DNA from: Naegleria gruberi
Taxonomy: Eukaryota
NCBI GenBank assembly: GCA_000004985.1
Contig: GG738933.1
Strand: one strand, 5' to 3'
Length of the DNA stretch: 64,000 nucleotides
Below, piece by piece: positions 1,119-25,015 of this stretch (positions are counted from its first letter, which is position 1; the number at the start of each line of letters is the position of its first letter). The translations under genes and the position numbers were made by a program. Below the pieces are notes generated by a model, which was not told the origin of the DNA, did not search any database, and worked only from the letters and a program-made list of their open reading frames with translations.

Positions 1119-1191
1119 GCCGACATAGCTCAGTTGGGAGAGCGTAAGACTGAAGATCTTAAGGTCCCTGGTTCGATCCCTGGTGTCGGCA
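1119..1191 (+). tRNA. tRNA-Phe, anticodon GAA (1152..1154), 73 nt, no intron, CCA not encoded.
   Basis: Acceptor stem GCCGACA/TGTCGGC; A-box TAGCTCAGTTGG; B-box GGTTCGATCC; anticodon loop CTGAAGA. The sequence closely matches metazoan-type tRNA-Phe. Confidence 0.93.
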
Positions 1192-1420: not shown

Positions 1421-2458
1421 CTACCTGTTCAAATACCATTCCAAGACAAGTCCTAAAACTAGTGAGGCCATTGAAAAAGCCAACATGTACCAGGTAATTT
1501 CCAAAAAGACATAGGCAAAGCCACCTACTGTTCTCTTTGCAATTCTGACCATGAGATACCTGAATATTTGAAACACCACCCTGATATAACTTGCCTTTGC
1601 TAGTCCTTCTCCATTTCTAAACATTTCTATCAAGTTTTTGTGAGCTATCGAATTGAATCTTACTTGTTTAAACAATTCTAAGGATTTGAATGGATTTTTA
1701 GAAATGACACCGTCAGGAGAACCACTTCTCAAGAGGAGTGCTTGTTCCAAGATTGCCTTCTTGTAGTTTCTTGAAGCAGCAACATTAAAATGATCCATTG
1801 CCCTTTCGTATTGTTTAGTTTTAAGGTAAAACTTTCCCAATGCATAGTGAGCAAAATTGGAATCAAATATTTCAACCAATTCAATCAAATAGGTTTCAAC
1901 AGTCGATTCAACAAGTTTCTGATTCGTCCAATCTCTGGATGCATCATATTTTGCAAGTAAGGTTTCGTATTTTCCAACTCTGACTGTCGAAACAAATCCC
2001 AAATAGGAAATAGTGGCCAGAAGTAATTGAGCTTGCTTTAATCCATTTTCAGAAGCCATTACAAGAGGTGACACATCATCAATAATTTGCTTTGAATCGA
2101 ACAATAGTAAGCTATGTAAATAGAGAGCAACTTGATTATTGTTTTGGAAAGTGTAGAATCCGAACCAATTTTTAGTAAATTCGCCAAGTTTCTTATTTGC
2201 ATAGGCATAGTTTTGTTTTCTCATTTCTGAGGATATTTCTTGTACTAGATAGTCAGGCATGGAATAGTTGTGATAGGATCGGAATGTAGATGATCCACTA
2301 GTAGTATTGGTGAATGAAATGTTGTGTGAAATAGGTTTCGTCGAGTTTCCTTTTTGTCCAAAGAAGATTAATCTCTTAACAAAGTTGAGAATAGGACCTG
2401 AACTTTCAGAAGCTTTGATTATATTTCTGACAATTGGTGTTGATGATCTTGATAACAT
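1421..2458 (-). CDS. Hypothetical protein with Sel1/TPR-like helical repeats in the C-terminal half.
   Basis: 345-aa ORF with an ATG start. Repeated A..Y.LG..Y....Y..A..WF..AA-like segments (HYALGKFYLKTKQYERAMDHFNVAA). Confidence 0.5.
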   Translation of the reverse strand: MLSRSSTPIVRNIIKASESSGPILNFVKRLIFFGQKGNSTKPISHNISFTNTTSGSSTFRSYHNYSMPDYLVQEISSEMRKQNYAYANKKLGEFTKNWFGFYTFQNNNQVALYLHSLLLFDSKQIIDDVSPLVMASENGLKQAQLLLATISYLGFVSTVRVGKYETLLAKYDASRDWTNQKLVESTVETYLIELVEIFDSNFAHYALGKFYLKTKQYERAMDHFNVAASRNYKKAILEQALLLRSGSPDGVISKNPFKSLELFKQVRFNSIAHKNLIEMFRNGEGLAKASYIRVVFQIFRYLMVRIAKRTVGGFAYVFLEITWYMLAFSMASLVLGLVLEWYLNR

Positions 2459-2724
2459 TTTTTTTGTGTTGTTTCGTATTCAAACTTTTTCAAACTATTT
2501 ATATTGTTTTTGGAATAGTTATAAATAAATCATTTTAATGATTGCAAGGACTTTCAATCAAAATCCTTTTTATAAAATTTCAACAAGTTATTTCTGTTTA
2601 ATCACCTTGAGAATCCAGAATACTAAATTTATCTCAGGTTTAGTATTTAAGTAAAAAGGAAATGAACATTTTCATCAAAATATTTATTTACAATACTTTA
2701 CAATGTTAATATTTTACATTCCTG

Positions 2725-3495
2725 CTATTTTCTAAAAACAGGTTTTTCCAGAACTTTGATTTTTGTAATGTGAATTTCTTCCTCTAGCGGATAAATATTT
2801 TCACATCTTGTTCGAATTTCATTGCTCATTCCACATTTGATAGCCATTCGTTCAACAAATTCAAGGATTTTCATTTGGGATATTTTCTTTGAAATGACAT
2901 CTGTCATAACAGTTCTGATTTTCTTGATTTGAGACTTGTTGGCATAGGATGTCTTTTTAAATTGCAAAGCTTTCATTCTTGTGCTTGCTATCATGAATAT
3001 TCTAATCTTGTATCCATCCAAACTCTTAAATTCATGATTCAAAGTGATGGTTGAGTGAAATCGTTTCGTCAAAGTTGCCAATTTATCTTTGGTCAATCTG
3101 AATCCATTAAATTCTGTGTCTGCATGTTGTGGTATCGGAATGTTATTGATCTTCAAGTTTACAATATTATAATTCATTTCCTCTTTGATTGATGGCATAA
3201 TGTCAGGAGCCGAAACTTCCAATGTTCGATTGAGCACTTTTTCAAACGTTGGTGTATGGTTGACAGTTTTTTTCAATTTTTCCTGCAAGTGAATAGTGTG
3301 CTTTGATTCTGTAATTGGTGTCACTAAAGGAGGATAGCTCCCTTGATTAGTGACAGTTGCAAATTCCATATACTTTGATTTTTCATAGCAAAGATATGGT
3401 GACTGGATGAGAAAGTATTGTTTTCTAAATTCAAATTGTGGTAATCTGTGCCTCACTTTCCTTCTAGATAGAAATGCGCTTTTTTTGGCAGGCAT
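2725..3495 (-). CDS. Hypothetical protein, 256 aa.
   Basis: Long ORF with an ATG start in an otherwise AT-rich region; no recognisable domain. Confidence 0.45.
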   Translation of the reverse strand: MPAKKSAFLSRRKVRHRLPQFEFRKQYFLIQSPYLCYEKSKYMEFATVTNQGSYPPLVTPITESKHTIHLQEKLKKTVNHTPTFEKVLNRTLEVSAPDIMPSIKEEMNYNIVNLKINNIPIPQHADTEFNGFRLTKDKLATLTKRFHSTITLNHEFKSLDGYKIRIFMIASTRMKALQFKKTSYANKSQIKKIRTVMTDVISKKISQMKILEFVERMAIKCGMSNEIRTRCENIYPLEEEIHITKIKVLEKPVFRK

Positions 3496-3853
3496 TTTTT
3501 TTTAATCTTCCAGTTCAAATTGCCAGTTTCTAATAATAAATTGAAACCATTTCGTAGTAATGGACGTATTTTCTGAAAATGAAAAGATAGTTTTTCGTTT
3601 GTTGTAATTTCTTATTGAGAACTCAGTAACAAAGATGTCCCTTAATGTTGTTGAGTGGTGAACAATATTCATTTTGCTTGACTTCAATTGATCGAACATG
3701 GTAACTATCGCTGTCACGCGTCAAGAATCTATTTCAAGAAATAATTGTTGACAGAAGAATATTCAAACAAATCACAAAAAAACAAAGCCAACTAACATTC
3801 TCCACAAACCACTTCCAAGATTGGCATGTTTGCATACCATCTAATAACTTCCC

Positions 3854-4315
3854 ATGCCACATCACACAAGACAGGATTTATCCGAATCTTGTGATTCATC
3901 CAATAATAACAATAACTCTTTCATTCCCTTCTATATGAGGGATGATTTACCAACCAACAGACAATCAAAAGCAAGAGTCAACCAGAGAAGAAGAAGAAAA
4001 ACCGTTCAAGATGTTCTCCAACAAAAGGTTTCTGCTTCTCCTTCGAATAATAATAATTTGATATCAGCTGCTGCTGGACCTAATATTCAACATCCTTCCT
4101 CTAATAATATTAATATTAATAATAATTTGAATAATAGTAATGGAGGTTTCTTGTCATCTCTTCAACAACAACAACAGAATAATAATAATAATAATTATAC
4201 ATCATCAACTAATATTCATCATCAACCTCCGTTGGCTCCCAAACCTCCTCAATTATTAAGTAATAATAATAATATTCTAATGGAATTCATTCGGTTGCAA
4301 CAAATACACCACTGA
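3854..4315 (+). CDS. Asn/Gln-rich low-complexity segment, probably the 5' part of the following gene, separated from it by an apparent frameshift.
   Basis: ATG at 3854; poly-N runs. The ORF stops at 4315, while a second frame opens at 4273 and runs into the 4336 ORF. Confidence 0.4.
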   Translation: MPHHTRQDLSESCDSSNNNNNSFIPFYMRDDLPTNRQSKARVNQRRRRKTVQDVLQQKVSASPSNNNNLISAAAGPNIQHPSSNNININNNLNNSNGGFLSSLQQQQQNNNNNNYTSSTNIHHQPPLAPKPPQLLSNNNNILMEFIRLQQIHH

Positions 4316-4335
4316 ATATTCTACCAAAGACTTTA

Positions 4336-6969
4336 ATGCAACAAACAAAACAAATTAATTCTCATCCTCATCCGCACCAACAACAACATCATCATCATGT
4401 ACCAATTCTTCCAAAGCAACAACCTTCCATATCACCTCGACCTCCTCCGACTGCGCATGTTAATCCAAATCAATATCCTCTACCATTCCCTCCTTCTCCC
4501 CTCACCTACCAACACTACTATCAACAACAACAACAATACGCTCTCAATCAAAACAGCAGCAACAATAATCAACAATCCGTAACGACACCTCCTCAAGGCA
4601 TTTTCCCCGCTCAAACTTTTACAGAAATTACAACAAAATTTGGCGGCAGTGTGCAATATAGAAATCGAAAAAGTTTGGGAAGCGAGCAAGAAAAATTGTC
4701 ATCGTCATCTTCCTCCTCGCACTCAGATGTGATTCATCACCATCATCACAACATTAATAGTAGTAGTAACAATTTTAGTGGTGGAGAGAAACAACGAATT
4801 CAATTAGGGCTACATCAACAACAACAACATCATGGAATTATTTCTACGAGTGCTGCCTCGAATAATATTGAAAGTAGTGTGGTAATTATTGGAGAGAGTA
4901 GGAGACCAACAATAGCAAATAGTATAAATAATAATGGAAAGGGTAGTGGAGAGGAAATGTTGATTGATTCAACTCCAACTCCAAAGGTATTTACACCAAG
5001 AACGACGAGTAGTAGCATGGTAAAGAAGGAAGAGCATGAAGGAAAGAAGCCATTGTCAATTTCATCATTTCTCTCTGCTCAATCTGGTAATCCTACGGCT
5101 TCAGCATCATCAGCAAGTAGAGCTCCAACTTCTCCACGTTCCAATTATATTAATGGAGTCAAGACTGTTTCTACAGCAGCTGTTCACAGATTGAAACGTT
5201 TGCAACAACAGATTCGTTCCTCTGATTTGCATGCTATCAACTCATCTGCACAAGTATTGAACTATTTAAAGATGGTACAACAACAGCAACAAGCTTATAT
5301 TCAACAAAGAATGATGCTTCAATCAAGTTCCATTCCTTCCCTGAATATTTCTGTCAATCATATTAAGAATCAATTGTACAATCCTAACTCTGTAACTCCA
5401 TCTTCCACAGCAACAAATGCTGCTGCCAACAATAATTCACAAGAATATTTACCATCTACCTTTATACCTTCCTATCAATTGGATCCAACTGTGGATATGA
5501 TGATTTCTAATTGGGAAAATCAAATCAGACAACGTCAACGACAACAGAAAATGCAAAAGTATAGAGTTCCAAATCTTCGTATTCCTCCACAAGATTTTGC
5601 CTCTAACTTTATGATTGATTCCTCATCGAGTGGAGGAAGCAGTAAGGGATCTCATTCAGATCGTTCTGAAGCTTGGATGAGTGCACGATTTGCAAGCTCC
5701 ACCATCAGTAGTGGAAGAGGAACACTAAGTAGTGGACTGGGAATTTCTCCACTCAATTCACCTAGTTCTTCTTGTGGAACTGTTAGTGACTGTGGTGTGC
5801 ACTATACTGCCGATCCAAATGATCTCATATCACCTAGGATTCAACATCATTCCAGACATAGTCACATGCTCATTACTGCCGAACAATTGTCTCCAGAGGA
5901 TGGAGACAATGATGACGAAGATGATGAGGATGGAGACACACTCATGATTGATGATTCTTCCCCAACAGCTCCTAACAAGGTTCTTCCACCAATTTCTACT
6001 TTGAATTTACCACCACTCAACTTGCTCTCTATTTCTCCTAGTACTGGTGATCATCAACAAGATCATTCTAAGAGTTGTCCAAATTCTGTCTCTAATAGGG
6101 AAAGTGACCAAGGAATTCAAACACTGTTTGGTTCAGGAAGTCACAAATCAGTTCAACCAAATCCAATTTCACTCAACAATACACCACCAGTGAGTCATGG
6201 TACTACATATAGACCAGAAGGATTCATTACACATCGTTCACATCAACAACACTATATCAATAATCATCATTCTAATTTAACATCATCGTCAGGAAAACAA
6301 ATTCATCACCAAGTTCATTCTACCCAACGAAGAGTTGATTCTCAACATGTTGAAAGTTTAATTTCCTCAACCAATGTATGTCCATCTCCAAAACGTTCAA
6401 ACCATCAATATCATCCATATCCTCTCACCAGTCCTAGATCTAAAAAGAAGAAGGTATCCACTCAAGATCAACCAACAGAGATTGAATCTATTTCATTCAA
6501 TTTCCCTCCACCTCCTACTTCAAATCCATCTGAGTCATCATCCAATGAACAAGTTGCCAATCAGGAAGAAATTCAACAACGTATGTCCATGCAACTTTTC
6601 CAAGCCATTTTCAGACATACACCTCTACCAATGTTCATTCTCAATTCCAAGGGTAAATTCATGTCTGTTAATCATGCCTTTGTTAACATGCTAGGTTATA
6701 ATCAAGAGGATCTCTTTTCCAACAAGTTTGCCTCTGAATTTGTTTCGAATGAACACGAATTGATGCAACAAATTCACAAATGCTCACACGAGGGAGGACT
6801 GAACAATGGAGTAGCAAATCAACAACACTATTCATTGTCTTTTAAGGATTATGAAGGATTGGAAATTCAAGCAGAAAATACCATTTACGTTCTCAGAGAT
6901 GTCATGTATGCAGGAGAATTCTTTGTATTCACAGTTACCAACTATCAATCTTCTGCCTCACGTGAATAA
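4336..6969 (+). CDS. Large Gln/His/Ser/Asn-rich protein with a C-terminal PAS-like domain.
   Basis: 877-aa ORF. C-terminal FQAIFRHTPLPMFILNSKGKFMSVNHAFVNMLGYNQEDL reads as a PAS fold; poly-Q, poly-H and poly-S tracts upstream. Confidence 0.55.
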   Translation: MQQTKQINSHPHPHQQQHHHHVPILPKQQPSISPRPPPTAHVNPNQYPLPFPPSPLTYQHYYQQQQQYALNQNSSNNNQQSVTTPPQGIFPAQTFTEITTKFGGSVQYRNRKSLGSEQEKLSSSSSSSHSDVIHHHHHNINSSSNNFSGGEKQRIQLGLHQQQQHHGIISTSAASNNIESSVVIIGESRRPTIANSINNNGKGSGEEMLIDSTPTPKVFTPRTTSSSMVKKEEHEGKKPLSISSFLSAQSGNPTASASSASRAPTSPRSNYINGVKTVSTAAVHRLKRLQQQIRSSDLHAINSSAQVLNYLKMVQQQQQAYIQQRMMLQSSSIPSLNISVNHIKNQLYNPNSVTPSSTATNAAANNNSQEYLPSTFIPSYQLDPTVDMMISNWENQIRQRQRQQKMQKYRVPNLRIPPQDFASNFMIDSSSSGGSSKGSHSDRSEAWMSARFASSTISSGRGTLSSGLGISPLNSPSSSCGTVSDCGVHYTADPNDLISPRIQHHSRHSHMLITAEQLSPEDGDNDDEDDEDGDTLMIDDSSPTAPNKVLPPISTLNLPPLNLLSISPSTGDHQQDHSKSCPNSVSNRESDQGIQTLFGSGSHKSVQPNPISLNNTPPVSHGTTYRPEGFITHRSHQQHYINNHHSNLTSSSGKQIHHQVHSTQRRVDSQHVESLISSTNVCPSPKRSNHQYHPYPLTSPRSKKKKVSTQDQPTEIESISFNFPPPPTSNPSESSSNEQVANQEEIQQRMSMQLFQAIFRHTPLPMFILNSKGKFMSVNHAFVNMLGYNQEDLFSNKFASEFVSNEHELMQQIHKCSHEGGLNNGVANQQHYSLSFKDYEGLEIQAENTIYVLRDVMYAGEFFVFTVTNYQSSASRE

Positions 6970-7206
6970 ATTGATGACTTTGAATTTCTCATTAGATCAT
7001 TTTACTGTTTGAACTAAGCGCTTGGATTGATTGGGAAAATAATAATTAGCCAGACATGTAATGAAGTATTTGAAAAAGCTACTTTAAGAAAGTTAGACGA
7101 AACTTGTACATTCTAAAATAGGAAAAACACTTGACAATTCAAACGCTTCTTTGATATTTAAACAATCACATGTGGGAAGAACCAACAACATCATTATCAA
7201 AAAAAA

Positions 7207-8649
7207 ATGTTTTTTCAATTGATTAACAACTTGCCCATCTATGCAAAAAACTTCATTTCTCTAATGGGACGCTCAAACGTTCTTCCAATTGACTTGATGG
7301 TTCTTGTCAAGGAATTTACAGAGGCACTCATTGTAACTATCTTCTATCCAGTTGTTACATTTGTTGGATTGTATCTCCAATTCATTAGATGGATTTGGGT
7401 CATGCTATTCAGAATGACAGTTCCAGCTCCTCAACAATTGGCATCTGGCATTCAAATCAAATCATGTATCATTACTGGTATTGCATCCAATGAAGAAATG
7501 GGTAGCAATCTATCCAACTCCAACACTGACAACACCATTGCCATGGCATACTCTTTGGCTAAGAGTTTGTGTTACAGTTGGATGAAAATCTTGGAACAAA
7601 ACATTGGAGCCGATCAGGAACATCGAATGATTACCTTGGTTGGACGTTCTGATGATTATTTGAGCGAGATGAGAGAAAGTTTGATTAAAGAGTTGGGAGA
7701 ATCTTTCGTAAAGAATATTGAGATTCGTATTAAGGTTGGAGATGCTTCAGATGAAGACAAGATTAGAAAGATTGTTACTGAGTATGATTATGATTTGGTA
7801 ATTGCTTGTCAACCTTGTGGATTTGTAACCACTGCAGAAGAAGGAAAATCAAGACAACCTGTCAGAAGACGTGACATTAAGGGAACTTCTTTCAAGCAAG
7901 GTGAAGATAAGAAAGTTTCTCCTCGTCGTACTAACTCTACATCTTCATCATCCTCATCAACTGATCAAGATAGAGAAATTGACAATTCTTTCACCAATTT
8001 GACAATTATTGGAGAAGAAACCATTCGTCAACAATTCGCCAACATTATTCAACCAACTTTGAACACCATCTTGCCAGCAATTAAGCAAGCCAACGAAAGA
8101 GGAGTGATCAACTCACCAAAACATGTCGTTGTTGGTTTAGTTAATGAAGTAGATCCAACAGTTTCTAATCATTTCGTCAATGAATTTGCTCTCCAATTGC
8201 CAAGAGTTGTCTTTACACAAATTTCCTCATTGGTCAACCGTTCTCTCTCCACCGAAACTCTCTTTGGAAATCAAACTATTAGAAACCAAATCGTCGAAAC
8301 TGACCTACCAACCAAATCTCAATTAGTTTTCCAAATGATTAATCCAATCACCAACATGACAGATAGGAGATTCAATCAATCTGTTTCCTCTACATATCAA
8401 TTCTCCACCTCTGCATCAACTTCTTCAACCTCTCAAAATGGTAAAGATAAGAGATCTCTCACCAATCCAATTCTTCCTCAATTCTTGGATAGGATTCCAT
8501 CTCAAATCTCCAATCAAATTCTTAAGGAAATTTACAAGGGAATTGAAGTGATTGATGTTAATCTTCCAATTCGATATGCCTCCGAAAGATTCCTCTCCGT
8601 ATTGCCTCATTCCATTGGTCAATTCACAAGAACTATTTTTAATTTGTAA
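7207..8649 (+). CDS. Hypothetical protein, 480 aa; N-terminal TM segment, then a possible Rossmann-like region.
   Basis: ATG preceded by an A-run; long ORF; a weak SDR-like pattern (ITGIAS...LVIACQP) that is not diagnostic. Confidence 0.45.
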   Translation: MFFQLINNLPIYAKNFISLMGRSNVLPIDLMVLVKEFTEALIVTIFYPVVTFVGLYLQFIRWIWVMLFRMTVPAPQQLASGIQIKSCIITGIASNEEMGSNLSNSNTDNTIAMAYSLAKSLCYSWMKILEQNIGADQEHRMITLVGRSDDYLSEMRESLIKELGESFVKNIEIRIKVGDASDEDKIRKIVTEYDYDLVIACQPCGFVTTAEEGKSRQPVRRRDIKGTSFKQGEDKKVSPRRTNSTSSSSSSTDQDREIDNSFTNLTIIGEETIRQQFANIIQPTLNTILPAIKQANERGVINSPKHVVVGLVNEVDPTVSNHFVNEFALQLPRVVFTQISSLVNRSLSTETLFGNQTIRNQIVETDLPTKSQLVFQMINPITNMTDRRFNQSVSSTYQFSTSASTSSTSQNGKDKRSLTNPILPQFLDRIPSQISNQILKEIYKGIEVIDVNLPIRYASERFLSVLPHSIGQFTRTIFNL

Positions 8650-8712
8650 TTTATATATAAAAAAAAATTTTGTAATTTCTAAATCCAAAAGCCTTAATAA
8701 GAAGTAAATGAC

Positions 8713-8734
8713 CAAATCAAATCAAATCAAATCG
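8713..8734. repeat. (CAAAT)n microsatellite, 4 perfect units.
   Basis: caaatcaaatcaaatcaaatcg read directly from the sequence. Confidence 0.6.
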
Positions 8735-8832
8735 CATTTTCGAGAAGGAGCAGAATCTTCTTGATAACTTCGATATGCGCGCGTTCACATTCAAATTGGT
8801 CTCTTGCGCTTAGATTCCCTTAGTAAAAAAAA

Positions 8833-9486
8833 ATGCCACCAAAACAAAATCTCTCACGGATGGGATCTCGGCGAATCGATTCAAACAATAATCTTCAAAT
8901 GCTATCTAATTTTAAACTTCCCTCAACGGCAACGCTTGGATCACTGCCCTCACAATATCATCAGAATAATCGATATGCTGTTTGCGATACTGATTCACAG
9001 TGTAGTGATGGAATGAGCATTGCTAGCTCTGAGGAATCATCACCTGTTCCTACCCGACATTCATCACCTTCTAATAATGCAGCTGCAGCAGCCATGAGAA
9101 GTAAATATAATGCATCACCTTTGCATAGTAGAACAGGAGGAGTATTGACCATGTCGATGAGTCCTTTGAATAATTTAAATAAGACTCCTCCACCTGGGAT
9201 ATTTATTGAGCAGAAATCATCAGCTGTCTTTTCAAAAACCAAGAACCTTAATACTAGTCCATCAAGCCCAAATACTTCTCCTCATAAGGATTTATCAAGT
9301 CCTTCCTTGTACTTTCAACGAAAACAATTATCACCCACACACCATCATCAGAGTCAGTATGTAAAGAAGGGATTGGAATTAGCCTCAGAGGTCTATCAAA
9401 TAGCCCCAAAACGAAACCGCAGTTCAAAAACCAGACTCGTCACCAGAAGAACCTCCATGCAAAGCAGCACCCTAACTACAAAGTGA
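8833..9486 (+). CDS. Ser/Thr/Pro-rich low-complexity protein, 217 aa.
   Basis: ATG after an A-run; open frame. The composition resembles disordered nuclear proteins, so it could still be a chance ORF. Confidence 0.4.
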   Translation: MPPKQNLSRMGSRRIDSNNNLQMLSNFKLPSTATLGSLPSQYHQNNRYAVCDTDSQCSDGMSIASSEESSPVPTRHSSPSNNAAAAAMRSKYNASPLHSRTGGVLTMSMSPLNNLNKTPPPGIFIEQKSSAVFSKTKNLNTSPSSPNTSPHKDLSSPSLYFQRKQLSPTHHHQSQYVKKGLELASEVYQIAPKRNRSSKTRLVTRRTSMQSSTLTTK

Positions 9487-9677
9487 GTGTCCATGTGGAA
9501 TGAGCTGTGATTTTGAGCTGAAGATATTGTTATTGTTGTGAAAAGTTCAAGAATGGGAACTATGAAAGAGCCTATTAAGTAAATTGCGGAGCGATAGAGG
9601 AGAAGATATTCTTAATAGATCCTGATGAATAAGATTTTCAGGAAATGCTAGAAATTGAGATCCAACTGTGAAATTTT

Positions 9678-11941: not shown

Positions 11942-14095
11942 TTAAGGATCTACGTTGGCAGATTTGAAAGAACCCAATAATGGAGATTCGACAAGTTTAG
12001 TTTCACTTAGTTTTCTTTCTAACATTCGAATTTTAGCTTGCATGTTTAGAATAGTTTTTCCACTTTCTCTATTTTCAACTGCCTTTCTCAAATCTTTAAG
12101 GAATGCAATTCTAAACTGTGCTGTCAGTGTCGAATTTGCAGATCCAACAAAAGTTGCAGATAATGGATCTTGAAGTTTCATATTTCTTACACGAATGTCA
12201 GCTCCCAAATCAATTAGTTTCGTACAAATATCCTTTCTTCCAAGTTGTGAAGCTACATGAAGTGGCGTATCACTACTCAAATTCTTTTGATTCATCATGA
12301 CATGAACATCCATAGACGAATCTTCTGACATGTACGAAATGGCTATTTCCAACATTTCAACTCTTCCATAACCAGAAATCCAATGCAACATGTTATTCTT
12401 GTTCTTATCTCTCAAATTGGCAAGTTTTTGTCTATCAGAATAGAAATGATTCAAAATCCATTCGAATATTTGATCACAACCTTGTTTGTTTCCAATAGTT
12501 CTGATGGCAAACCAAATTGGTTCGTTCATGGTGATGGTTGTGTTGGTGGATGGGAAGGTTGGTTTGAAATCATAGTTGGAAATGAGTGATCCCAAAAAGT
12601 CTAATGTCTTTCGGCTAGTTTCTTGCTTGTCAGTACACAATAACATGCACAAGGTCAGTAAATTGTGAACTTCTTCCCGATCTTCCTTTGCTGCACACGA
12701 TGTTGATGGACTTGAAACACCAAAACTTGAATCTAATCCATGTCTATTTCCAAATAAAGCCTTATTAACCATTGGATCAGATGCCTCAATTGAGCTACCA
12801 TTGGAAGATGACATTTTACAAGTGGCATTCATGTTAGCTCCTCGAGAAATCAAGAAGTGAGCAATATCAAAGTGACCTCTCAATATAGCCAAATGTAAAG
12901 CACTTGGAAAATCTCTACGTGATTGAGTTTCTGATTCTCTTGCTTCAACATCAACTTTGACTTCATCAATTAGATATTTGACAACATTGAATGCACCACC
13001 GAGAACTGCACTTGTCAATGGAGTATGATAATAATTATCCACATGAAGATTAACATCAATATTTGACTTTTCCAGCATTTTCTTGACGAGATGTAATCTG
13101 TTATATTTACAGGCATAGTTAATGAGAGAAACTCCTTGGTGGGTGATTCTGGCAAGTTGATCACCAGTGAGACCCATCTTGTCAAAGATGAAATCCATGC
13201 ACTTGTCGTTTAATTCTTGCTCCTTTTGGACAGTTTCGAATGATTTGGACGAAAGGGAATTATGAGGTGTACTTGTAATGATTAATTTGAACATTAACAA
13301 GTACATGTTCTTCTTACATCTTGGATCGAGATTTTCATGTTGGAGAGAAATGACACTAGATTCGTATTGAGTTTCGTATTCGTCTTGTAATCGAATAAGT
13401 TCTCTAAATAATTCTTCACTTTCATTGAAGAAACAGGCTGTGTGAATTGGTTGTAAACCTCTTGAATTGGTTCCAAAAAGGGATTTCTTGACAAGATCTT
13501 TGACTGATGGCATTTCTTCTGATTTGAGAGTTTCTAATTTTTGTAAAGATTCGATTAATGATTTGAGGATTTTAGATTCTGCATTTGGAGTTTCACAAAG
13601 CAAGTGAACAATATTACCATCATCAAGATAACTTGACAAGCCTTTGATCATTATTGGAAAACATGAATATTCTGTATAAATTTGCAAGTACTGATTATTC
13701 GAAAGGTAATACGAAAGTCCACTACAATCATTCTCATCAAAATAATCTCTCAGCCTCTCTGTCATCTTTTTGGTAACATATCTTTCATCCAAATTCAAAG
13801 CATACGAAGGATTAGTCTCCAAAAAAACATCAATCATCTGTTTGACAGTCTTATTAAACGAAAGGTTTGAATTCGGCAATTGTTCACCAGTTGTTGGATT
13901 AGTCTGACGTCTAACTAACCATTCTTCAATAGCCTCTCTTTCAAAAGTATCACCAAGAGCAGTGACAACTGGATCACACATTATTCTTCTCGTAATTGGA
14001 CAATATATCAAATCTTTGATTGGATTCGAATCTGTTTGTTGCTGACCAAGTGATGGACTATTCATTCCTAAAGCAGGGCTGTTGCGATTTGACAT
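11942..14095 (-). CDS. U-box E3 ligase-like protein with ankyrin repeats. The track start is GTG; the first ATG (MSNRNSP...) is at 14095.
   Basis: U-box signature DLIYCPITRRIMCDPVVTALGDTFEREAIEEWL. Several ankyrin repeats, for example TPLHVASQLGRKDICTKLIDLGADIRVRN. Confidence 0.75.
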   Translation of the reverse strand: MSNRNSPALGMNSPSLGQQQTDSNPIKDLIYCPITRRIMCDPVVTALGDTFEREAIEEWLVRRQTNPTTGEQLPNSNLSFNKTVKQMIDVFLETNPSYALNLDERYVTKKMTERLRDYFDENDCSGLSYYLSNNQYLQIYTEYSCFPIMIKGLSSYLDDGNIVHLLCETPNAESKILKSLIESLQKLETLKSEEMPSVKDLVKKSLFGTNSRGLQPIHTACFFNESEELFRELIRLQDEYETQYESSVISLQHENLDPRCKKNMYLLMFKLIITSTPHNSLSSKSFETVQKEQELNDKCMDFIFDKMGLTGDQLARITHQGVSLINYACKYNRLHLVKKMLEKSNIDVNLHVDNYYHTPLTSAVLGGAFNVVKYLIDEVKVDVEARESETQSRRDFPSALHLAILRGHFDIAHFLISRGANMNATCKMSSSNGSSIEASDPMVNKALFGNRHGLDSSFGVSSPSTSCAAKEDREEVHNLLTLCMLLCTDKQETSRKTLDFLGSLISNYDFKPTFPSTNTTITMNEPIWFAIRTIGNKQGCDQIFEWILNHFYSDRQKLANLRDKNKNNMLHWISGYGRVEMLEIAISYMSEDSSMDVHVMMNQKNLSSDTPLHVASQLGRKDICTKLIDLGADIRVRNMKLQDPLSATFVGSANSTLTAQFRIAFLKDLRKAVENRESGKTILNMQAKIRMLERKLSETKLVESPLLGSFKSANVDP

Positions 14096-14420
14096 TCTTT
14101 GTGTTGTTTTTTTTGTGTCGATTAATTTGATTAACAGCTGACAGTTCCTTACCACTCATTATTTATAACAAACACACAAACAGTTGCAGTTAGCATGAAA
14201 AACGCTCGATGATGTGCTTGTGCAAACAAGTTTAAGTGGCAAGTAGAAAATGTGATGGAGAATTGAGAAGGTTGCCCTTTAAGGCAATAACAATTTTGGC
14301 GGGAAAGTTTGATGTGAGGTGAAGTGTTTGCCTAGACAAAATGTATTGAGGTGCGTCGAGTTGTTTCTTGTTGATTTTAAAAGGCTTGTTAGAGGTGGGT
14401 ATCTATCAGAAATCAAAGAT

Positions 14421-14437
14421 GCGAATGAAAGAAAAAT
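14421..14437. repeat. Target-site duplication (left copy), GCGAATGAAAGAAAAAT.
   Basis: Identical 17-mer at 19850..19866; the flanks outside the 17-mers differ. Confidence 0.7.
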
Positions 14438-14470
14438 CTTTTAATGCATTTTGGCGAATCTATTCAGATT

Positions 14471-17400
14471 CTATTTCTCACTTCGTTTGTAAATAGGTTT
14501 TGAATCAATTTGATAAATAAGGAAGGCTCTTCCAATAAATTTGGAAATAGCAGCTTGGATCTCTGGCCATTTCTTTAAGACGTTATGGTTGGGGATCTTA
14601 TCTATATATTCATTCTCAAAAAAGGTTATGCCTGAGTGATGGAAATATAGCACATATGAGTATTGGAAAGGAATTTCTTGGATAGGGGAGAGTGAACACT
14701 CAGGTCTATCAAGTATTTCTGTTAATCTATTTTGACAATATCTTCTTTGATTGTCTAGTCTGGGGCATTCATGTATGTAATGTTCTAAATTTGAGGGACA
14801 ATTACAATCTGAGCAGGTTGGATTCAATTCATCTTTCTTCTGTGTATATTTGATATGAGAATTTGAAGCGTTTCGCCAAATTTGATATTTGGTTTTAGGT
14901 GACAGTCGTGACTTGAGGTAGGCTACATTAATTGATGACCAGCTTTGGTTTGGAATAAAGTTGGGATTACTATCAATTGCTTCGTGCATCTCCTTAAGTT
15001 GGCGATTTACAGTCATTCTTTTGCAATCAAAGATCACAATATCGTTTTTCATAAGTAAATATTGGTTGGTTAGTAAGGATTTGATATCAAAGATCTTATC
15101 TCTTTCAGTTCCATCTTTCGCAAGGCGATCTACTATTATATTTTCCTTATCTTCATGTCCTTTAACTTTGATTATATAAACTGAAATATTCTTTTCTTTT
15201 TGGATATTGAAAAATTCAGTTTTGAAAGGGAGAAAGTTTCCTTTGTATTTTCTGGATAGGACATCTATTGCAACTTTGCTATCTGTGTGTATTCTAGCGG
15301 TTGTTCCATTTGGAAGTAGTTTCATTGCAGTGATAATTGCTCCTATTTCTGCAACATTGTTAGAGTATTCATTATTGATACGGAGTGAAAGGCTTTTACA
15401 AGGTGATAACCTTCCACCGGATTCATATATATTAATACCCATACCTGTTTTACCTGCAAGCTTGGATCCGTCTGTATGGATAATAAAGCATCTATTGGTT
15501 TCATTCACTTTCTTTAATCTGAATTTGGTATGATTCTTTTTGAAATCTAAATTATATTTCTGAAGTATTGACATCCATTGAATGAAAATGTTATTACTAT
15601 TATCATTGGTATGACTAATTCCAAATTTAAAAGCTTTCTGAACTAACTTGTTATTGGAATTTGCTATTAAGGAGAGAGTTCTTAAATTAAGTCTGTCTGT
15701 AAATTCTTCAATTGAGGGAACACCGAGTCCACCTTCTTCTAATGGTAGGTGGAAAAAAGCTGTTTTGGTGGTTCTGTCTAGTTTTAACTTTGTTCTGAGT
15801 ACATTTCTAATGCAAATATCTATTCTTGATACCAGTGATGGAGGAATGACATTAAGTTTGGATAGATGTGTAAATAAACTAATCACTTTAGCATGAAGGA
15901 CTTGTCTTAAATTATGGGGTTGAAGTTTGAGTATTGGGAAATATTTCAGTGATTCATTGAATTTAGCTATCTTGCTTTCAATATCTTCTTTGACCAATTT
16001 ATCTTCCCAAGGGTAGTGTCCGAGAACTCTAAGATTTTTCTGAATGGGAATTGGCACTTGTTTGATTTTTGGTATGATTTTGCTTTTTGTGGGAAGGAGA
16101 GTGGCAATTGACTTTTTTGCATTTAATTTGAAAAGCAATTGAGATAACCAGTCGTCGATGTTATCTAGTCTTCCATTATAATTTGTGAATCTGTCGCATA
16201 CTATATTCATATCGTCAGCGAAACAACAAAGACCAATTTCGTTTGCATTCAATTCAGATGGTTCTATTGGTAGTTGCCATTGGTCTATTGCTTTGTCTAT
16301 TATGAGTTGTGTAATACAATCGTAAATAAGAGGTGCTAATGGGCAACCTTGAGGAATTCCTCGTGTTTTTGTGAAGTTATTTGATAGATGTTTGTCAATT
16401 TCTAATTGTAAACTGTGATTGCTGTATGCATTAATTATAAAATCAGTTAGTGGTGTTGGGAATTTACAATGATTAAGGGCCATCCTAATAACCGGCATCT
16501 CCACTGCGTCGTAGGCACCTTCAATGTCAAGGTTGACTAATATAAATGTTCTTCGTCTAGTTTTCAAGGCCAGGGAGGAAAGTACTATTCCATGGTTCAT
16601 TGTATTTCTATTATTTATGAAGGCCTGTTGTCTCATATTAATCTGAGAGCTAGCCCATTCACATAATTTGTGGGCGATTAAATTAAAAAGGATTCTATAA
16701 AATATTGGTAGTATTGTGATGGGTCTAATATCTCCTAATGTTTTAACTTCTCGCTTTGGAATCAGTTTAACCCAACCGTGTTTCCATTCTTGGGGGATAT
16801 CTCCTTGTGTTAAACATTTGTTAAACTCTTCAACTATTAAAGCTAATTTCTCTAATTTTAAGCCCTTGATGATATCTAATGAAATTTCGTCTTGTCCTGG
16901 TGTATTCGATTTCATTCTTTTAATGGTTTCTTTTACATCTCTATATGAAATCCGACCTATATCTCTAGGACCTGAAGTGATAGTGGATGGACTTGGCATA
17001 AAGGTTGGTGTTTGATTGGAGGTTGTAAACTTTTTGGAAAAATAATCTAAAATTTCTTGTTCTCCAAATGGCAATTCTTTCCAGATAATTTCTTTAGAAT
17101 GCAGTTTTCTATCAAATTGATACATGTGGGAGGCGTGACTATTGTTATATTTGTCAGTTAATTGTTCTTTGATTTCTTTACATGATTGGATGTGAGTCTC
17201 TTTAAGAATTGTTTGTAGTTCTGATATTTCATCAAGTCCAACATTTGGGTCTTCTAATTTACCCATAATCTTATTTTCTAATTTACGAATTTTACCTTTA
17301 AATATGGAGGAAATAATGCTACCACCAAGTCTGTCAACTTTGGTTCCATATTTTGCAATGTTGTTTTGTATTTCTGCATTTAATTCTTGAAATGTATTGG

Positions 17401-18199
17401 CATTTGACGTATTTATCTCTTTGATCATTTCTTCTCTTTTCTTCTTACCAATATATGATCTCCAATTTAAATGTGATTTGAATTCAATATCAATGTAAAA
17501 AGGGATGTGATCATTACTTGTGAGCGGTGGAAGGAGTTCTTCTTTGATAACCTTAATATCTTTAGACACGAAAATGTGGTCTAATCTTGAAGTGGTGATT
17601 CTATTCTGTTGTCTTCTAATGTAAGTCTTATTATTAGTCTTATATTCTGTTAGTTGGAGTAGATTAAATAGCCAGCACCATTCTTTATCTCTACCGTTTG
17701 AAGGATTAATGGTATTGATATTAAGATCTCCATTAATTATGACATGTTCATCTCTACATGTCAGTACTGCATTTGTTATACTGTTCATGGCTTCAACATC
17801 ATTTTCTTTATCATCAACTCTTCCACTAAGATATGGAGTGAAAATATTAATTGGTATACCTTTGCTTTCGAATCGTGTCCATTGAAGAACACCTGGAATT
17901 AGATTGATATTAGTAATATTTCTCTTGTGAGGGTTGTTAAGGAAGTGCATAACAGCCGTCCCTTTTTTTCCTTTCGTTGTATTCATTAAGGAGTTAAATA
18001 ATATATAGCCTGTTCCTGAATTTTTAACTTTATATTCTAGATCAGGAGTATTTAAATGAGTTTCGGTTAACGAAATCATGTGTATTTTATGATGAAGACA
18101 CATTGATTTCACTTCTGGTGTAACCGATTTCTTACTAGCATGTTTATACAGGCCGTTTACATTGTAACACGCTAGTCGTAAATTACTATAATTACTCAT
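14471..18199 (-). CDS. Retrotransposon ORF2: apurinic-like endonuclease, reverse transcriptase, RNase H and a C-terminal zinc finger.
   Basis: N-terminal LACYNVNGL...LTETHL...SRLDHIFVS (EEP/APE). RT motif GLCCFADDMNIVCD. RNase H IHTDGSKLAGKTGMGI...VAEIGAII...IHTDSKVAI. C-terminal CSDCNCPSNLEHYIHECP. Confidence 0.9.
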   Translation of the reverse strand: MSNYSNLRLACYNVNGLYKHASKKSVTPEVKSMCLHHKIHMISLTETHLNTPDLEYKVKNSGTGYILFNSLMNTTKGKKGTAVMHFLNNPHKRNITNINLIPGVLQWTRFESKGIPINIFTPYLSGRVDDKENDVEAMNSITNAVLTCRDEHVIINGDLNINTINPSNGRDKEWCWLFNLLQLTEYKTNNKTYIRRQQNRITTSRLDHIFVSKDIKVIKEELLPPLTSNDHIPFYIDIEFKSHLNWRSYIGKKKREEMIKEINTSNANTFQELNAEIQNNIAKYGTKVDRLGGSIISSIFKGKIRKLENKIMGKLEDPNVGLDEISELQTILKETHIQSCKEIKEQLTDKYNNSHASHMYQFDRKLHSKEIIWKELPFGEQEILDYFSKKFTTSNQTPTFMPSPSTITSGPRDIGRISYRDVKETIKRMKSNTPGQDEISLDIIKGLKLEKLALIVEEFNKCLTQGDIPQEWKHGWVKLIPKREVKTLGDIRPITILPIFYRILFNLIAHKLCEWASSQINMRQQAFINNRNTMNHGIVLSSLALKTRRRTFILVNLDIEGAYDAVEMPVIRMALNHCKFPTPLTDFIINAYSNHSLQLEIDKHLSNNFTKTRGIPQGCPLAPLIYDCITQLIIDKAIDQWQLPIEPSELNANEIGLCCFADDMNIVCDRFTNYNGRLDNIDDWLSQLLFKLNAKKSIATLLPTKSKIIPKIKQVPIPIQKNLRVLGHYPWEDKLVKEDIESKIAKFNESLKYFPILKLQPHNLRQVLHAKVISLFTHLSKLNVIPPSLVSRIDICIRNVLRTKLKLDRTTKTAFFHLPLEEGGLGVPSIEEFTDRLNLRTLSLIANSNNKLVQKAFKFGISHTNDNSNNIFIQWMSILQKYNLDFKKNHTKFRLKKVNETNRCFIIHTDGSKLAGKTGMGINIYESGGRLSPCKSLSLRINNEYSNNVAEIGAIITAMKLLPNGTTARIHTDSKVAIDVLSRKYKGNFLPFKTEFFNIQKEKNISVYIIKVKGHEDKENIIVDRLAKDGTERDKIFDIKSLLTNQYLLMKNDIVIFDCKRMTVNRQLKEMHEAIDSNPNFIPNQSWSSINVAYLKSRLSPKTKYQIWRNASNSHIKYTQKKDELNPTCSDCNCPSNLEHYIHECPRLDNQRRYCQNRLTEILDRPECSLSPIQEIPFQYSYVLYFHHSGITFFENEYIDKIPNHNVLKKWPEIQAAISKFIGRAFLIYQIDSKPIYKRSEK

Positions 18200-19836
18200 T
18201 TAGAAAGAGTACAAGATGATGAGCTTTTTGATTCTTCATCATCTTGCATAATAGAATTATTAGTACTATTATTTATATAATGGGAGATTTTGTCAATAAG
18301 TTCCATTGTATCAGCTAATGCTTTCTTAAAATCACGCAGTTCAGTTTCAATATTAGATAGTCTAGTTTCAAATAGATTGGTTGTTGTATTAATAGTAGGA
18401 GTAACTACAGAATTAGTGGTTGAACTGGTATTATCGTTAGATTGTATAGGATTGATCATAGGATTAGTTACTTCCGGTAATTTAGAGTTAGTTAGAAATG
18501 GATATTGTTTTTGTTTTCTTTCAATTATTTCATCTAATTGTTTAATAGATGGTACGAAACAGTAACTGGTTCCATCAGTAATGTTTTGTTTGGTATTGAG
18601 AACAATTTTCTTGTCAATAAATAGATTCATTTCGTCAATATTTGAATGGACGACTTTACATAATTTAAAGGTAGTGGTATTGGATTTGTTTTTGGATTCA
18701 GTTATCATGCATTGGTTAGTATTGAAATCTTTTTTAATGCGTTCGTATACACGAGTAACACCATCGATGATTTCCTTGTTTGTAAAGGTAGGTGGAAATA
18801 AACATTCTGAAACATTAGTAGGAGTTTCATTACGCAATTGTTCAACAGATTTGTAATTAGTTAAATTAAGCTTCTTTCTAATAACTTCGCACACATCTTC
18901 GTTTTCGTATGAAACTCTAATTATATATTTACCATGTGATTGGTTTGTATACATTTGGGAGATAAGTATAGTATTATCGTTATTAACTGAGTGTTTGATT
19001 AGTGATTTAATCATATCAATGTGTTGTGAATATATGTGTGTAGAGTGAGTTAGAGCGTACAAGCTATGCTCGAATACAGCAGGTGATGGGAAGAATTTCA
19101 ATATTAAATCATTGTGTACACTATCAAGCATATCTTTGCAAAGAATATAATTGTCATTACTATTGCAATGAAGATTAATGACATTACTAGTTTGGGGTCT
19201 TATTTTAATGGTGGCAAATTCCCCAAAGATGTCCATAATTTGTTCCATGAATTTGTTATTAATTCTTTCATAGCAGATAATATTAAGTGAATGTGTCAAA
19301 TCGAATTTCTTATTTTGCTTGACTGGTTTTTTACCATAGAATGAAATTGAGCGTTTCATTTTGATTTGTTTTGCTATAGTTTGTTTGATACTTGGTTGAG
19401 CTTTTATAGGGTGATACTTCACCATATCCAAATATGGAGTAAGTTGTAGTTTGGTATTTTGCTCAATAGGGTTCTTACTACATTCATATTTTGGTTTAAT
19501 ATTACTAGTAATGGAATGAATTTGTTGATTTCTATTTTGGGGAGTTGACTTAATATTTTGGATTTCTGAAGTAGGTTTTTTAAATGAATCAGTAGAAATG
19601 TTAGTGGTAGAAGTATCTTCTTGATTAATATTATCAACTTTAACCTTTACATCTTTGTCTTGTACAAACTCGGATTTAAACATTATTTTGTCGTAAATCT
19701 TTTGCATAGTTTCCATGTATTTTTGAAGACGAATATTTTCAATCCGATATGAATCGACTGCTTGTTCTAACACAAGAATCCTGTTAGTCAGCTGCAGACA
19801 ATTTATTGGATCAGGAGGGCGGTCATGTAAAGGCAT
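18196..19836 (-). CDS. Retrotransposon ORF1, 546 aa, with an N-terminal coiled coil. Its stop overlaps the ORF2 start (ATGA).
   Basis: ATG at 19836..19834. Plus-strand tcat at 18196..18199 reads ATGA on the minus strand, giving ORF1's TGA over ORF2's ATG. Confidence 0.8.
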   Translation of the reverse strand: MPLHDRPPDPINCLQLTNRILVLEQAVDSYRIENIRLQKYMETMQKIYDKIMFKSEFVQDKDVKVKVDNINQEDTSTTNISTDSFKKPTSEIQNIKSTPQNRNQQIHSITSNIKPKYECSKNPIEQNTKLQLTPYLDMVKYHPIKAQPSIKQTIAKQIKMKRSISFYGKKPVKQNKKFDLTHSLNIICYERINNKFMEQIMDIFGEFATIKIRPQTSNVINLHCNSNDNYILCKDMLDSVHNDLILKFFPSPAVFEHSLYALTHSTHIYSQHIDMIKSLIKHSVNNDNTILISQMYTNQSHGKYIIRVSYENEDVCEVIRKKLNLTNYKSVEQLRNETPTNVSECLFPPTFTNKEIIDGVTRVYERIKKDFNTNQCMITESKNKSNTTTFKLCKVVHSNIDEMNLFIDKKIVLNTKQNITDGTSYCFVPSIKQLDEIIERKQKQYPFLTNSKLPEVTNPMINPIQSNDNTSSTTNSVVTPTINTTTNLFETRLSNIETELRDFKKALADTMELIDKISHYINNSTNNSIMQDDEESKSSSSCTLSK

Positions 19837-19849
19837 TTTTTTAAAAGTC

Positions 19850-19866
19850 GCGAATGAAAGAAAAAT
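19850..19866. repeat. Target-site duplication (right copy), GCGAATGAAAGAAAAAT.
   Basis: Identical to 14421..14437. Confidence 0.7.
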
Positions 19867-20712
19867 GATTGGAGGATAAAGTTTACAATATTTGAGGTAA
19901 TTTCAATGTTGTTGAAAGGGATCAAAAATAAGTATTTGGAGGTGATTTTGCTCCTATTGAAAAAGAGTGTTTACTTCCTGTTAAAAAAGAGTTTATTCCA
20001 ATTAGTGTTACTTATTAAAAAAATGTTTAATGAAACAATTGTTTCCTGTCACCTTAATCGCTCATCTTGCTCTTGCTGTCAAGATCATTAAAATTATAAT
20101 TTAGTGGTTGTGAAACAGCTACCATCCTCCTATTTATACTAGAATCTGCCTTGTGTATGTTCATGCTCTTTTAAGAACTTTTTTAAACAACGTGAATGAT
20201 CTAAACTTGAACAGAACTTTTTAAGATTTGTTTCAAATCAAATTACTCTTAATATTTAAAGCCCAAAAGCAATGGTTGTATATTGAAAGTTCAAAAATGT
20301 CTTTTAATATTACCGTTACAATCAACAATTTAATGAAAATTGTAAACCAAGTCCGTCAAGTTCCCAATCAATTTTACCAAAAAAGATGCCGAAGAGATCA
20401 AACCGACAAATTCATAAAAAAATCAAAAAAATTATCTCCACTCAATCAACCCACCCACCAACCTATCTTTTTTAATATTAACCTAACTTGCTCTCATAAA
20501 TACAGAATTTGAGAAAATATATTATTCGGTTAGGAAAGAAGATTATATATTGTACTATTATAAATATTATTGAAGCTCTATTATACTAACTTGCATATAT
20601 TGGGATTTATTGTTCGATCTAAATAGACACATATAATTCCTATCAAATATAATACAAAGGTTTAAATATATTGTAACATACCATTTAAGAAATATTGAAT
20701 ACTATTTAGAAA

Positions 20713-23838: not shown

Positions 23839-25015
23839 TTACAAATTGAAAGATAATCTTTCCCATTCACCAACAGCACTTCTATTGACAACAATATCTC
23901 CACTTGGTTCCACACAAACATAGGTATTATGTTCAGATTTCAATGCAATAGCTCCATTTCCATGCAATTCAACACTAAATTGTTCCCAAGGTCCAACAGC
24001 ATCACGATTAGCAACCAACAAACCACTTGGTTCAGCACACATCAATTTACCATGAGCAGATCTGAATGCATTCTTTCCAGCTCCATGATGTTCAACAGTG
24101 AATTGTTCCCAAGGACCAACTGCATCACGATTGGCAACCATTGAATGATTTGATTCAGCACACAACAATTTACCATGATGATGTCTCAATGAAATGCTCT
24201 GATTTGGAGCCAATGAAAATTGGAACTGTTCCCAAGGTCCCAAAGCATCTCTATTAGCAATAACTAATCCAGATGGCTCAGCACACAAGAATTTACCATG
24301 AGCTGATTTGAATGCCACTTGATTTCCAGATTGAACCAATGAGAAAGTTTCCCACGGACCCAAAGCATCTCTATTGGCAATAATTTCACCACTTGGTTCA
24401 GCACACATGAATTTTCCATGAGCTGATTTGAATGCATAATCATTTCCAGAAATGTGAATCAAAGTCATTGCTTCCCAAGCTCCACTGGCATCACGATTGG
24501 CGACAACTTGACCACTTGGTTCGATACAGAAGTATTTGGAATGACAAGATCTGAGATTGGCCAATAGGGAACGATGTTTGGCTGAGTGGATAGTGTAGGA
24601 TCCATGTGGACCAGAATAATTGGTTCCTGGATAGGACATGCCACCTCCAGTGACGAAAAGATAGACATTGATAAAGTCGGAGAGGGAAATGGACTTGCTC
24701 TTGGCATGATCAACGAGTTTAAATAAGAATCTAATGAAATTTTGATTATTCGAAAGTAAACTATTTCTGTACTTACTTGATTTCTTCCTTGGCGAGACCA
24801 ATATCTTGAGCAGCTTTCTTCCATTCCTTCTTATTCATGGAATTGGAGTGATCCTTGTCGTATTGTTGGAAAGTAGATTGTGCTTGAGAGATGAGTTGTT
24901 GATCTTGACCATGTTGAGGCTAAAGTAGAGTAAACTAGACGAAAGTATGAGAATGCGTACTTACAATTTGGAAACCAGAAGGTGCCCATGATGGTTGTTG
25001 TCCTTGATACCACAT
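23839..25015 (-). CDS. EF-hand protein with six hisactophilin/fascin-like beta-trefoil repeats (two trefoils). About 3 exons; the junctions of the 5' exons (24802..25015) are uncertain.
   Basis: Exon 1 MWYQGQQPSWAPSGFQI ends at a GTAAGT donor. An EF-loop DKDHSNSMNKKE lies in exon 2. Six repeats of ANRDA.GPWE.F......AFKSAHGK.C.AEPSG, compared with hisactophilin AFKSHHGHFLSAE. Confidence 0.6.

Follow-up and report, generated by a model that had tools for sequence, protein, structure and literature searches.

A 64-kb window of Naegleria gruberi DNA (here, the whole stretch that was analyzed) carries a 5412-bp retrotransposon of the type lacking long terminal repeats (non-LTR). We are confident that it represents a full-length, coding-intact and recently inserted long interspersed nuclear element (LINE) of the apurinic/apyrimidinic endonuclease (APE) type, with a precise 5′ end, a putative first nick at AAAAAT^G and a 3′ end probably recognized through a hairpin. 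The host strain is N. gruberi NEG-M (GC content, ~33%). The U-box/ankyrin gene (EFC36305), a Mex67/TAP_C-like gene (EFC36280) and four more open reading frames (ORFs) of the window gave exact N. gruberi matches, all on one 99,287-bp scaffold.

The boundaries of the element were defined by a direct repeat and by an orthologous site that lacks the element. An earlier note on this DNA had pointed to identical 17-mers flanking 5412 bp and had written out the sequence expected of the empty site. We located both copies of the 17-mer (GCGAATGAAAGAAAAAT) at 14421-14437 and 19850-19866, and no other occurrence was present in the window, even when up to 2 mismatches were allowed. Besides the 17-mer, no terminal direct or inverted repeats were found at the element ends, that is, neither long terminal repeats nor terminal inverted repeats, and the 64-kb window contained no further copy of the element. 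The empty site was found in L005, a 4007-bp ENA metagenome contig from an environmental Naegleria, which was reached via a cluster mate of the Mex67-like protein. Positions 1-721 of L005 aligned to window 13710-14429 with 98.6% identity and positions 707-971 to window 19844-20106, the two alignments overlapping by 15 nt. Collinearity of the contig thus passes from the left flank of the window to its right flank, and the changeover falls precisely where the boundaries were predicted. At the junction, L005 reads AAAGAT-GCAAATGAACTTAAAAT-GATTGG, a single target copy with four substitutions relative to the window 17-mer, and strain polymorphisms aside, this is the empty site that had been predicted. 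Because the orthologous empty site has one copy, the 17-mer is a genuine target-site duplication, and the block from 14438 to 19849 is an insertion with a true duplication of 17 bp. Separately, we observed that L005 971-1143 and window 20106-20266, just past the insertion site, are far more diverged, with 89% identity in one part and no alignment over about 170 bp, than the DNA around them (97-98.6% identity).

A second copy of the element is present on a 182,562-bp scaffold. There, the ORF2 and ORF1 models (EFC36780 and EFC36779) match those of the window copy at 812 of 813 and 386 of 387 residues, respectively, giving 2 differences in 1200 modelled residues compared. The genes flanking the window copy lie on the 99,287-bp scaffold, and none of them has a mate in its protein cluster on the 182,562-bp scaffold, which places the second copy at a separate locus. 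The claim of recent mobilization made in the earlier note is therefore supported by a nearly identical copy on a different scaffold. Near-identical mates of both flanking genes were found on an 18,095-bp scaffold (EFC35995 and EFC36000; U-box protein, 565/569 residues; Mex67-like protein, 100%), where the U-box model starts only at M149, and the ORF1 and ORF2 protein clusters have no member on this scaffold. Judging from these gene models, the 18,095-bp scaffold may be an alternative haplotype without the element, in which case the insertion would be hemizygous in NEG-M. The element is situated upstream of the U-box/ankyrin gene, its 3′ end being 343 bp from the ATG at 14095, close to the ~340 bp estimated before. 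It is probably autonomous, and it may still be mobile. ORF1 is identical to GenBank EFC36307. The GenBank models of ORF2 (EFC36306 for the window copy, and EFC36780) comprise 813 amino acids and join ...QEWKH to EEGGLGVP..., removing the entire core of the reverse transcriptase (RT) as a supposed intron. Because the public models splice out the RT core, the element is labelled as a “predicted protein” with an RNase H match only.

Both of the uninterrupted minus-strand ORFs that had been reported, of 546 and 1242 amino acids, were present, and each domain assigned to ORF2, namely, APE, RT with its FADD motif, RNase H and a Cys/His finger, was detected by Pfam, profile or motif. An ORF2 profile built from six family members was searched against PDB. 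The APE assignment is supported because this profile matched the human L1 endonuclease (2v0r) with an E value of 7e-11; exonuclease III was also matched, and ORF2 contains the endonuclease motifs NVNG, TETH, GDLN and SRLDH. The profile scored equally against the R2 RT (1e-38) and human L1 ORF2p (2e-37), and it matched Escherichia coli RNase HI with an E value of 2e-9. In the family alignment, the ADD residues of the RT and the TDGS motif, E951, D973 and D1024 of RNase H are invariant, as are C1129, C1132, H1140 and C1145 of the CCHC motif in the six family members. For ORF1, Pfam returned noise only at E values up to 10, the ORF1 family profile had no match in PDB, and the pattern CX2CX4HX4C was not found among its 11 scattered cysteines. 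A single-sequence AlphaFold model of ORF1 had a predicted local distance difference test score of 35.6 and was not used for a fold search. Homologues of ORF1, sharing 19-28% identity, are nevertheless encoded in L001 and in both N. fowleri families described below.

The relatives that we recovered comprise L001, a Logan contig with a 52% identical ORF2, and two families from Naegleria fowleri: family 1 with copies in L004, L006 and L008, which are mutually 99.5-99.7% identical over 5.6 kb, and family 2 with a copy in L007. The wider lineage includes several N. gruberi families (P0004 and P0045), environmental Naegleria-like contigs and Willaertia magna (26% identity). The next matches were arthropod RT proteins with 25-27% identity; among ten representatives looked up, those with names came from N. 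fowleri, W. magna and arthropods, the last without clade labels. On these sequence matches, the lineage appears confined, so far, to Heterolobosea (Naegleria and Willaertia). A metagenome scan for more insertion sites returned only 21-26% identical relatives.

Five insertions (window, L004, L006, L007 and L008) could be analyzed at both junctions, and in all five the duplication begins with ATTTTT and is preceded by C (C|ATTTTT). It reads ATTTTTCTTTCATTCGC in the window (17 bp), ATTTTTTTTTGATATTA in L006 (17 bp), ATTTTTATTCTTGTTG in L008 (16 bp), ATTTTTTTTGTTGTTC in L007 (16 bp), and ATTTTTTTT in L004 (9 bp), where 7 extra nt follow. ATTTTT also follows the 3′ end of L001 and that of a 5′-truncated copy in L002. 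Because 5/5 duplications start in this way, we place the first nick at AAAAAT^G on the strand opposite the element sense. The ORF2 endonuclease would thus nick 5′-AAAAAT^G-3′ on that strand, and the second strand would be cut 16-17 bp away, giving rise to the duplication. The motif is dispersed, with 45-46 AAAAATG sites in the 64-kb window. All five insertions are located in divergent intergenic regions and are oriented as the downstream gene. No duplication was found at the Willaertia magna locus (L009).

The element ends with ...AAAAG directly before the duplication, as the earlier note had stated, and has no A-tail. A poly(A) tail was absent from all family members, and the N. fowleri relatives end with ...CTAATTAG. 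Close to the 3′ terminus, the window element contains a perfect hairpin that is identical in L001 (21/24 nt match). The 24-nt window around this non-coding hairpin is, after the RT core, the second most conserved between the two elements, which are 58.7% identical overall. In N. fowleri family 1, a perfect 6-bp hairpin of another sequence (AGCACC-AGT-GGTGCT) is located 17 nt from the end; this hairpin lies inside the last ORF2 codons, the 3′ untranslated region (UTR) there being 4 nt long. The chance of such a hairpin at such a position is ~0.01 per family. Based on its conservation and position, the 3′ hairpin is probably a cis-element for template recognition by the RT, as in stringent-type LINEs. 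After nicking, the freed 3′-OH would prime cDNA synthesis at the 3′ end of an element RNA without poly(A), and this RNA would probably be recognized via the short hairpin 17-18 nt from its end. Since every copy has a regenerated target motif immediately downstream, one may speculate that read-through transcripts with AUUUUU at their end pair with the AAAAAT-3′ primer.

The predicted ATGA overlap between ORF1 and ORF2 was confirmed at the junction, and the same overlap occurs in L003 (CAATGAGT) and L007. In L001, a 20-nt spacer separates the two ORFs in place of the overlap, and the N. fowleri family 1 copies have a one-base shift at the junction (ATG-T-AAT) that places the ORF2 start out of frame. 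Termination-reinitiation is known in other LINEs, and SART1 couples ORF1 and ORF2 via overlapping stop and start codons; the AUGA arrangement suggests that ORF2 of the Naegleria element is probably translated in the same manner. We also noted that all three family 1 copies, which are 99.5-99.7% identical, have frameshifts in ORF1 and that TTG replaces the ORF1 ATG in L004. Either real decay or homopolymer errors introduced by a long-read assembly might account for these changes.

We then compared the 5′ ends of the window element, L001, N. fowleri family 1 and N. fowleri family 2. On the sense strand, the window element starts with GACTTTTAAAAAA-ATG, L001 with GTCTTCAAAAAAA-ATG, family 1 with GACGCAAAAAAA-ATG in three copies at different loci, and family 2 with GAAGCCCTTAAAAA-ATG. 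A G...AAAAAA-ATG layout with a 12-14-nt leader is thus common to four families that share 35-52% ORF2 identity; in the window, the distance from the 5′ duplication to the ORF1 ATG, previously given as about 13 nt, is exactly 13 nt. Since leaders of 12-14 nt recur in four families, the minimal 5′ UTR characterizes the lineage and does not reflect truncation, and judging from the aligned ends, it is a precise, conserved 5′ end. Most simply, transcription would start at the conserved first G, which precedes the ORF1 AUG by 13 nt, and the promoter would be located downstream of the start site, inside the ORF1 coding sequence. The upstream flanks differ at every copy. The earlier note had offered either a precise end with a downstream or internal promoter or a reliance on host promoters; recurrence in four families favors the former, and the latter is disfavored. 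Extra nucleotides before the conserved first G were seen in two unrelated copies, ATTTC in L001 (1-5) and TAATTTC in L004 (2013-2019), and ATTTCG occurs at a similar place in Willaertia L009 (~3260-3265). These could be a few further nt of the genuine 5′ end, untemplated additions or a coincidence.

Two other explanations of the short leader were considered. The window copy might be slightly 5′ truncated, with master copies having a longer 5′ UTR and a conventional promoter and the ATG having survived by chance. Truncation of the 5′ end is common in LINEs, L001 and L004 carry five to seven extra nt before the shared G, and the second N. gruberi copy is represented by gene models only. However, the four families, with ORF2 identities of only 35-52%, all begin 12-14 nt before the ORF1 ATG with G...AAAAAA, and the three N. 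fowleri copies at unrelated loci share the same terminal nucleotide, positioned right after their own duplications. We therefore regard truncation as very unlikely. Alternatively, the element might lack a promoter of its own and be transcribed by read-in from host promoters, with its 5′ end generated by RNA processing, for instance by a hepatitis delta virus (HDV)-like ribozyme. R2 and other LINEs whose 5′ UTR is short or absent are known to use this route, and HDV-like ribozymes occur in R2 and L1Tc; moreover, the window copy is situated between two divergently oriented genes. Yet no Rfam match, including HDV-like ribozymes, was found in window 14000-20400 at E values up to 5, and the first 200 nt of the element are not more structured than shuffled sequences (folding z = -0.51). 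The upstream flanks are unrelated between copies, and in the N. fowleri copies they run antisense to host coding sequence, which leaves no host promoter directed into the element. Read-in transcription is thus unlikely, and we favor a precise 5′ end with a promoter inside the element.

Alternatives to the insertion itself fared worse. The 17-mer pair could in principle be a pre-existing or chance repeat with the true boundaries elsewhere, and the A/T-richness of the 17-mer makes short chance matches easier. However, none of 100 dinucleotide-preserving shuffles contained two matches, and the L005 empty site, with its one copy and collinear flanks on both sides, is hard to reconcile with a repeat that predates the element; this explanation is vanishingly improbable. 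A pre-existing repeat was one of the objections raised by the earlier note against its own reading, and it is refuted by L005. Dictyostelium TRE elements integrate within about 50-100 bp of a tRNA gene, and the same note had set the element against them, stating that no tRNA gene was adjacent. The latter statement holds, as the sole tRNA gene of the window is ~13 kb away, but the comparison with TRE is inapplicable because the host is Naegleria gruberi. A strayed TRE-like element targeted to tRNA genes has nothing in its favor except that framing and can be dismissed: both ORFs and the flanking genes have identical N. gruberi proteins in GenBank, the GC content is 33%, the nearest tRNA gene is 13 kb away, and the family has its own target motif. 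For the reading that we prefer, a full-length and recently inserted APE-type LINE, several observations count on the other side. Only two copies are visible in the N. gruberi genome, the second of which is known from protein gene models and not from DNA, and its ORF1 model starts only at M160. The Pfam matches of ORF2 to Exo_endo_phos and Exo_endo_phos_2 (amino acids 12-234) score below the curated Pfam cut-offs. The sample behind the nick motif is small (five full junction pairs and two 3′ junctions) and includes the 9-bp duplication with 7 extra nt in L004, and N. fowleri family 2 has an imperfect hairpin only.

The AAAAATG motif is also the Naegleria start-codon context, and because the two coincide, three to four N. 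fowleri copies lie exactly on host start codons. In L004 (a Nas2_N/PDZ gene), L006 (a TELO2 gene) and L007, a long host ORF has its first ATG at the nick, and L008 is ambiguous; these relatives stand head-to-head with the host gene (L004, ~2004-7625; L006, ~2372-7996; L007, ~2370-7567; L008, ~3973-9603). At the window insertion, the ATG at the nick opens just a 4-codon ORF. Of the 45 AAAAATG sites in the window, 13 already provide the first ATG for an ORF of 100 amino acids or more. Against this background, a binomial estimate gave a P value of ~0.15 for at least 3/5 start-codon hits and of ~0.03 for at least 4/5. As so many background sites are ORF starts, the start-codon hits are largely explained by the motif itself, and we rejected start-codon targeting as a significant excess: three to four hits out of five are not clearly above the motif background. 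It is nonetheless conceivable, although doubtful, that the endonuclease evolved to cut AAAAAT^G as the host start-codon context and that the extremely short, A/T-rich 5′ end serves as a compact bidirectional promoter. If so, copies would land head-to-head on a host ATG, leaving 16-17 bp of the native leader, and the bidirectional promoter would drive the element RNA and keep the displaced host gene expressed. To our knowledge, start-codon-targeted retrotransposition is a target class that has not been described for LINEs. New insertions would often strike gene starts, because the motif coincides with the start-codon context.

Among known LINEs, the RNase H-bearing APE-type elements (I/Tad1/LOA/Ingi) share with the Naegleria element two ORFs, an ORF2 with APE, RT and RNase H followed by a Cys/His motif, and insertion with a target-site duplication, probably by target-primed reverse transcription. 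This likeness is one of domain layout, and the ORF1 proteins differ: I clade ORF1 has CCHC zinc knuckles, whereas Naegleria ORF1 has neither these (CX2CX4HX4C) nor a recognizable domain. L1 resembles the Naegleria element in its bicistronic ORF1/ORF2 organization and in having APE, RT and a C-terminal CX2-3CX7HX4C motif, and the alignment of ORF2 with human ORF2p spans both the endonuclease and the RT (E value, 2e-37). Unlike L1, the Naegleria element lacks poly(A), has RNase H, has a putative nick site of AAAAAT^G instead of TTTT^AA, and shows no match to a Transposase_22 or RRM-type ORF1 at the sequence level, while its RT scores equally against R2. A poly(A) or simple-repeat tail, typical of LINEs but not universal among them, is missing. 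In lacking an A-tail and having a short conserved hairpin near the 3′ end, the element is similar to stringent-type LINEs (eel UnaL2, Bombyx SART1 and R2); these belong to other clades and hosts, and hairpin recognition in Naegleria is suggested by conservation alone. Sequence-specific LINEs (R1, R2, TRAS/SART, NeSL/CRE/SLACS and TRE) likewise reuse one short target with a precise junction, as the small Naegleria sample does, but the Naegleria target is a dispersed 7-nt motif, in contrast to multicopy RNA genes, telomeres or tRNA genes. Each individual feature is known in other LINEs, and it is their combination here that is unusually compact.

Naegleria genomes are poor in transposable elements. 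Such elements make up ~0.28% of the genomes in one survey (bioRxiv 10.64898/2026.06.24.734286), LINEs account for 0.25% in N. lovaniensis (PMC6125883), and the surveys report totals only (PMC6125883; bioRxiv 10.64898/2026.06.24.734286; PMC12344493). We found no description of Naegleria LINEs in the searchable literature. The element described here is a source of recent mobility in these genomes. That an intact, very recent copy is apparently not shared by a related strain suggests that insertions continue to generate variation in this free-living model amoeba. A larger set of relatives, 99.5-99.7% identical, is present in the human pathogen N. fowleri. The compact layout, with its 13-nt leader, AUGA overlap, 4-33-nt 3′ UTR and 3′ hairpin, makes the element a convenient model in which LINE promoters and template recognition could be studied.

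Table 1. Coordinates of the Naegleria gruberi non-LTR retrotransposon, its predicted parts and the window tRNA gene (positions in the 64-kb window)
Feature	Position	Strand	Remarks
Complete non-LTR retrotransposon, 5412 bp	14438..19849	- (sense = window's minus strand)	Bounded by the 17-bp duplication; block absent from the L005 site
Target-site duplication, copy on the element's 5′ side	19850..19866		Reads ATTTTTCTTTCATTCGC on the element's sense strand; single copy in L005
Target-site duplication, copy on the element's 3′ side	14421..14437		Exact 17-mer match; single copy in L005
Putative first-strand nick motif AAAAAT^G, on the strand opposite the element sense	19861..19867	+	C|ATTTTT at duplication start
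5′ UTR, 13 nt, GACTTTTAAAAAA	19837..19849	-	
ORF1, 546 amino acids, uninterrupted	18196..19836	-	No recognized domain, no CCHC knuckle
ATGA overlap, ORF1 stop/ORF2 start	18196..18199	-	Junction reads CTTTCTAAATGAGTAAT
ORF2, 1242 amino acids, uninterrupted	14471..18199	-	APE endonuclease, reverse transcriptase, RNase H, CCHC
APE-type endonuclease domain, ORF2 amino acids 12-234	17498..18166	-	Sub-threshold Pfam, family profile and motifs
Reverse transcriptase domain, ORF2 amino acids 480-728	16016..16762	-	Pfam RVT_1, E 2.9e-26; FADD at amino acid 660
RNase H domain, ORF2 amino acids 905-1031	15107..15487	-	Pfam RNase_H, E 6.4e-14
C-terminal CCHC motif CSDCNCPSNLEHYIHEC, CX2CX7HX4C, ORF2 amino acids 1129-1145	14765..14815	-	
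3′ hairpin GAATCT-GAAT-AGATTC, ending 18 nt before the 3′ terminus	14456..14471	-	Putative RT-recognition cis-element
3′ UTR, 33 nt, ending ...ATTAAAAG	14438..14470	-	No poly(A)
tRNA-Phe (GAA)	1119-1191		Only tRNA gene in the window; ~13 kb from the element and unrelated to it

Three further repeat arrays in the window are unrelated to the element. Positions 23972-24450 contain tandem or near-tandem direct repeats in four units with a spacing of 120-123 nt, and two 86-nt repeat units with 94% identity are located at 60533-60729. At 62555-62752, repeat units of 66 nt lie in a minus-strand ORF that is rich in acidic and lysine codons.

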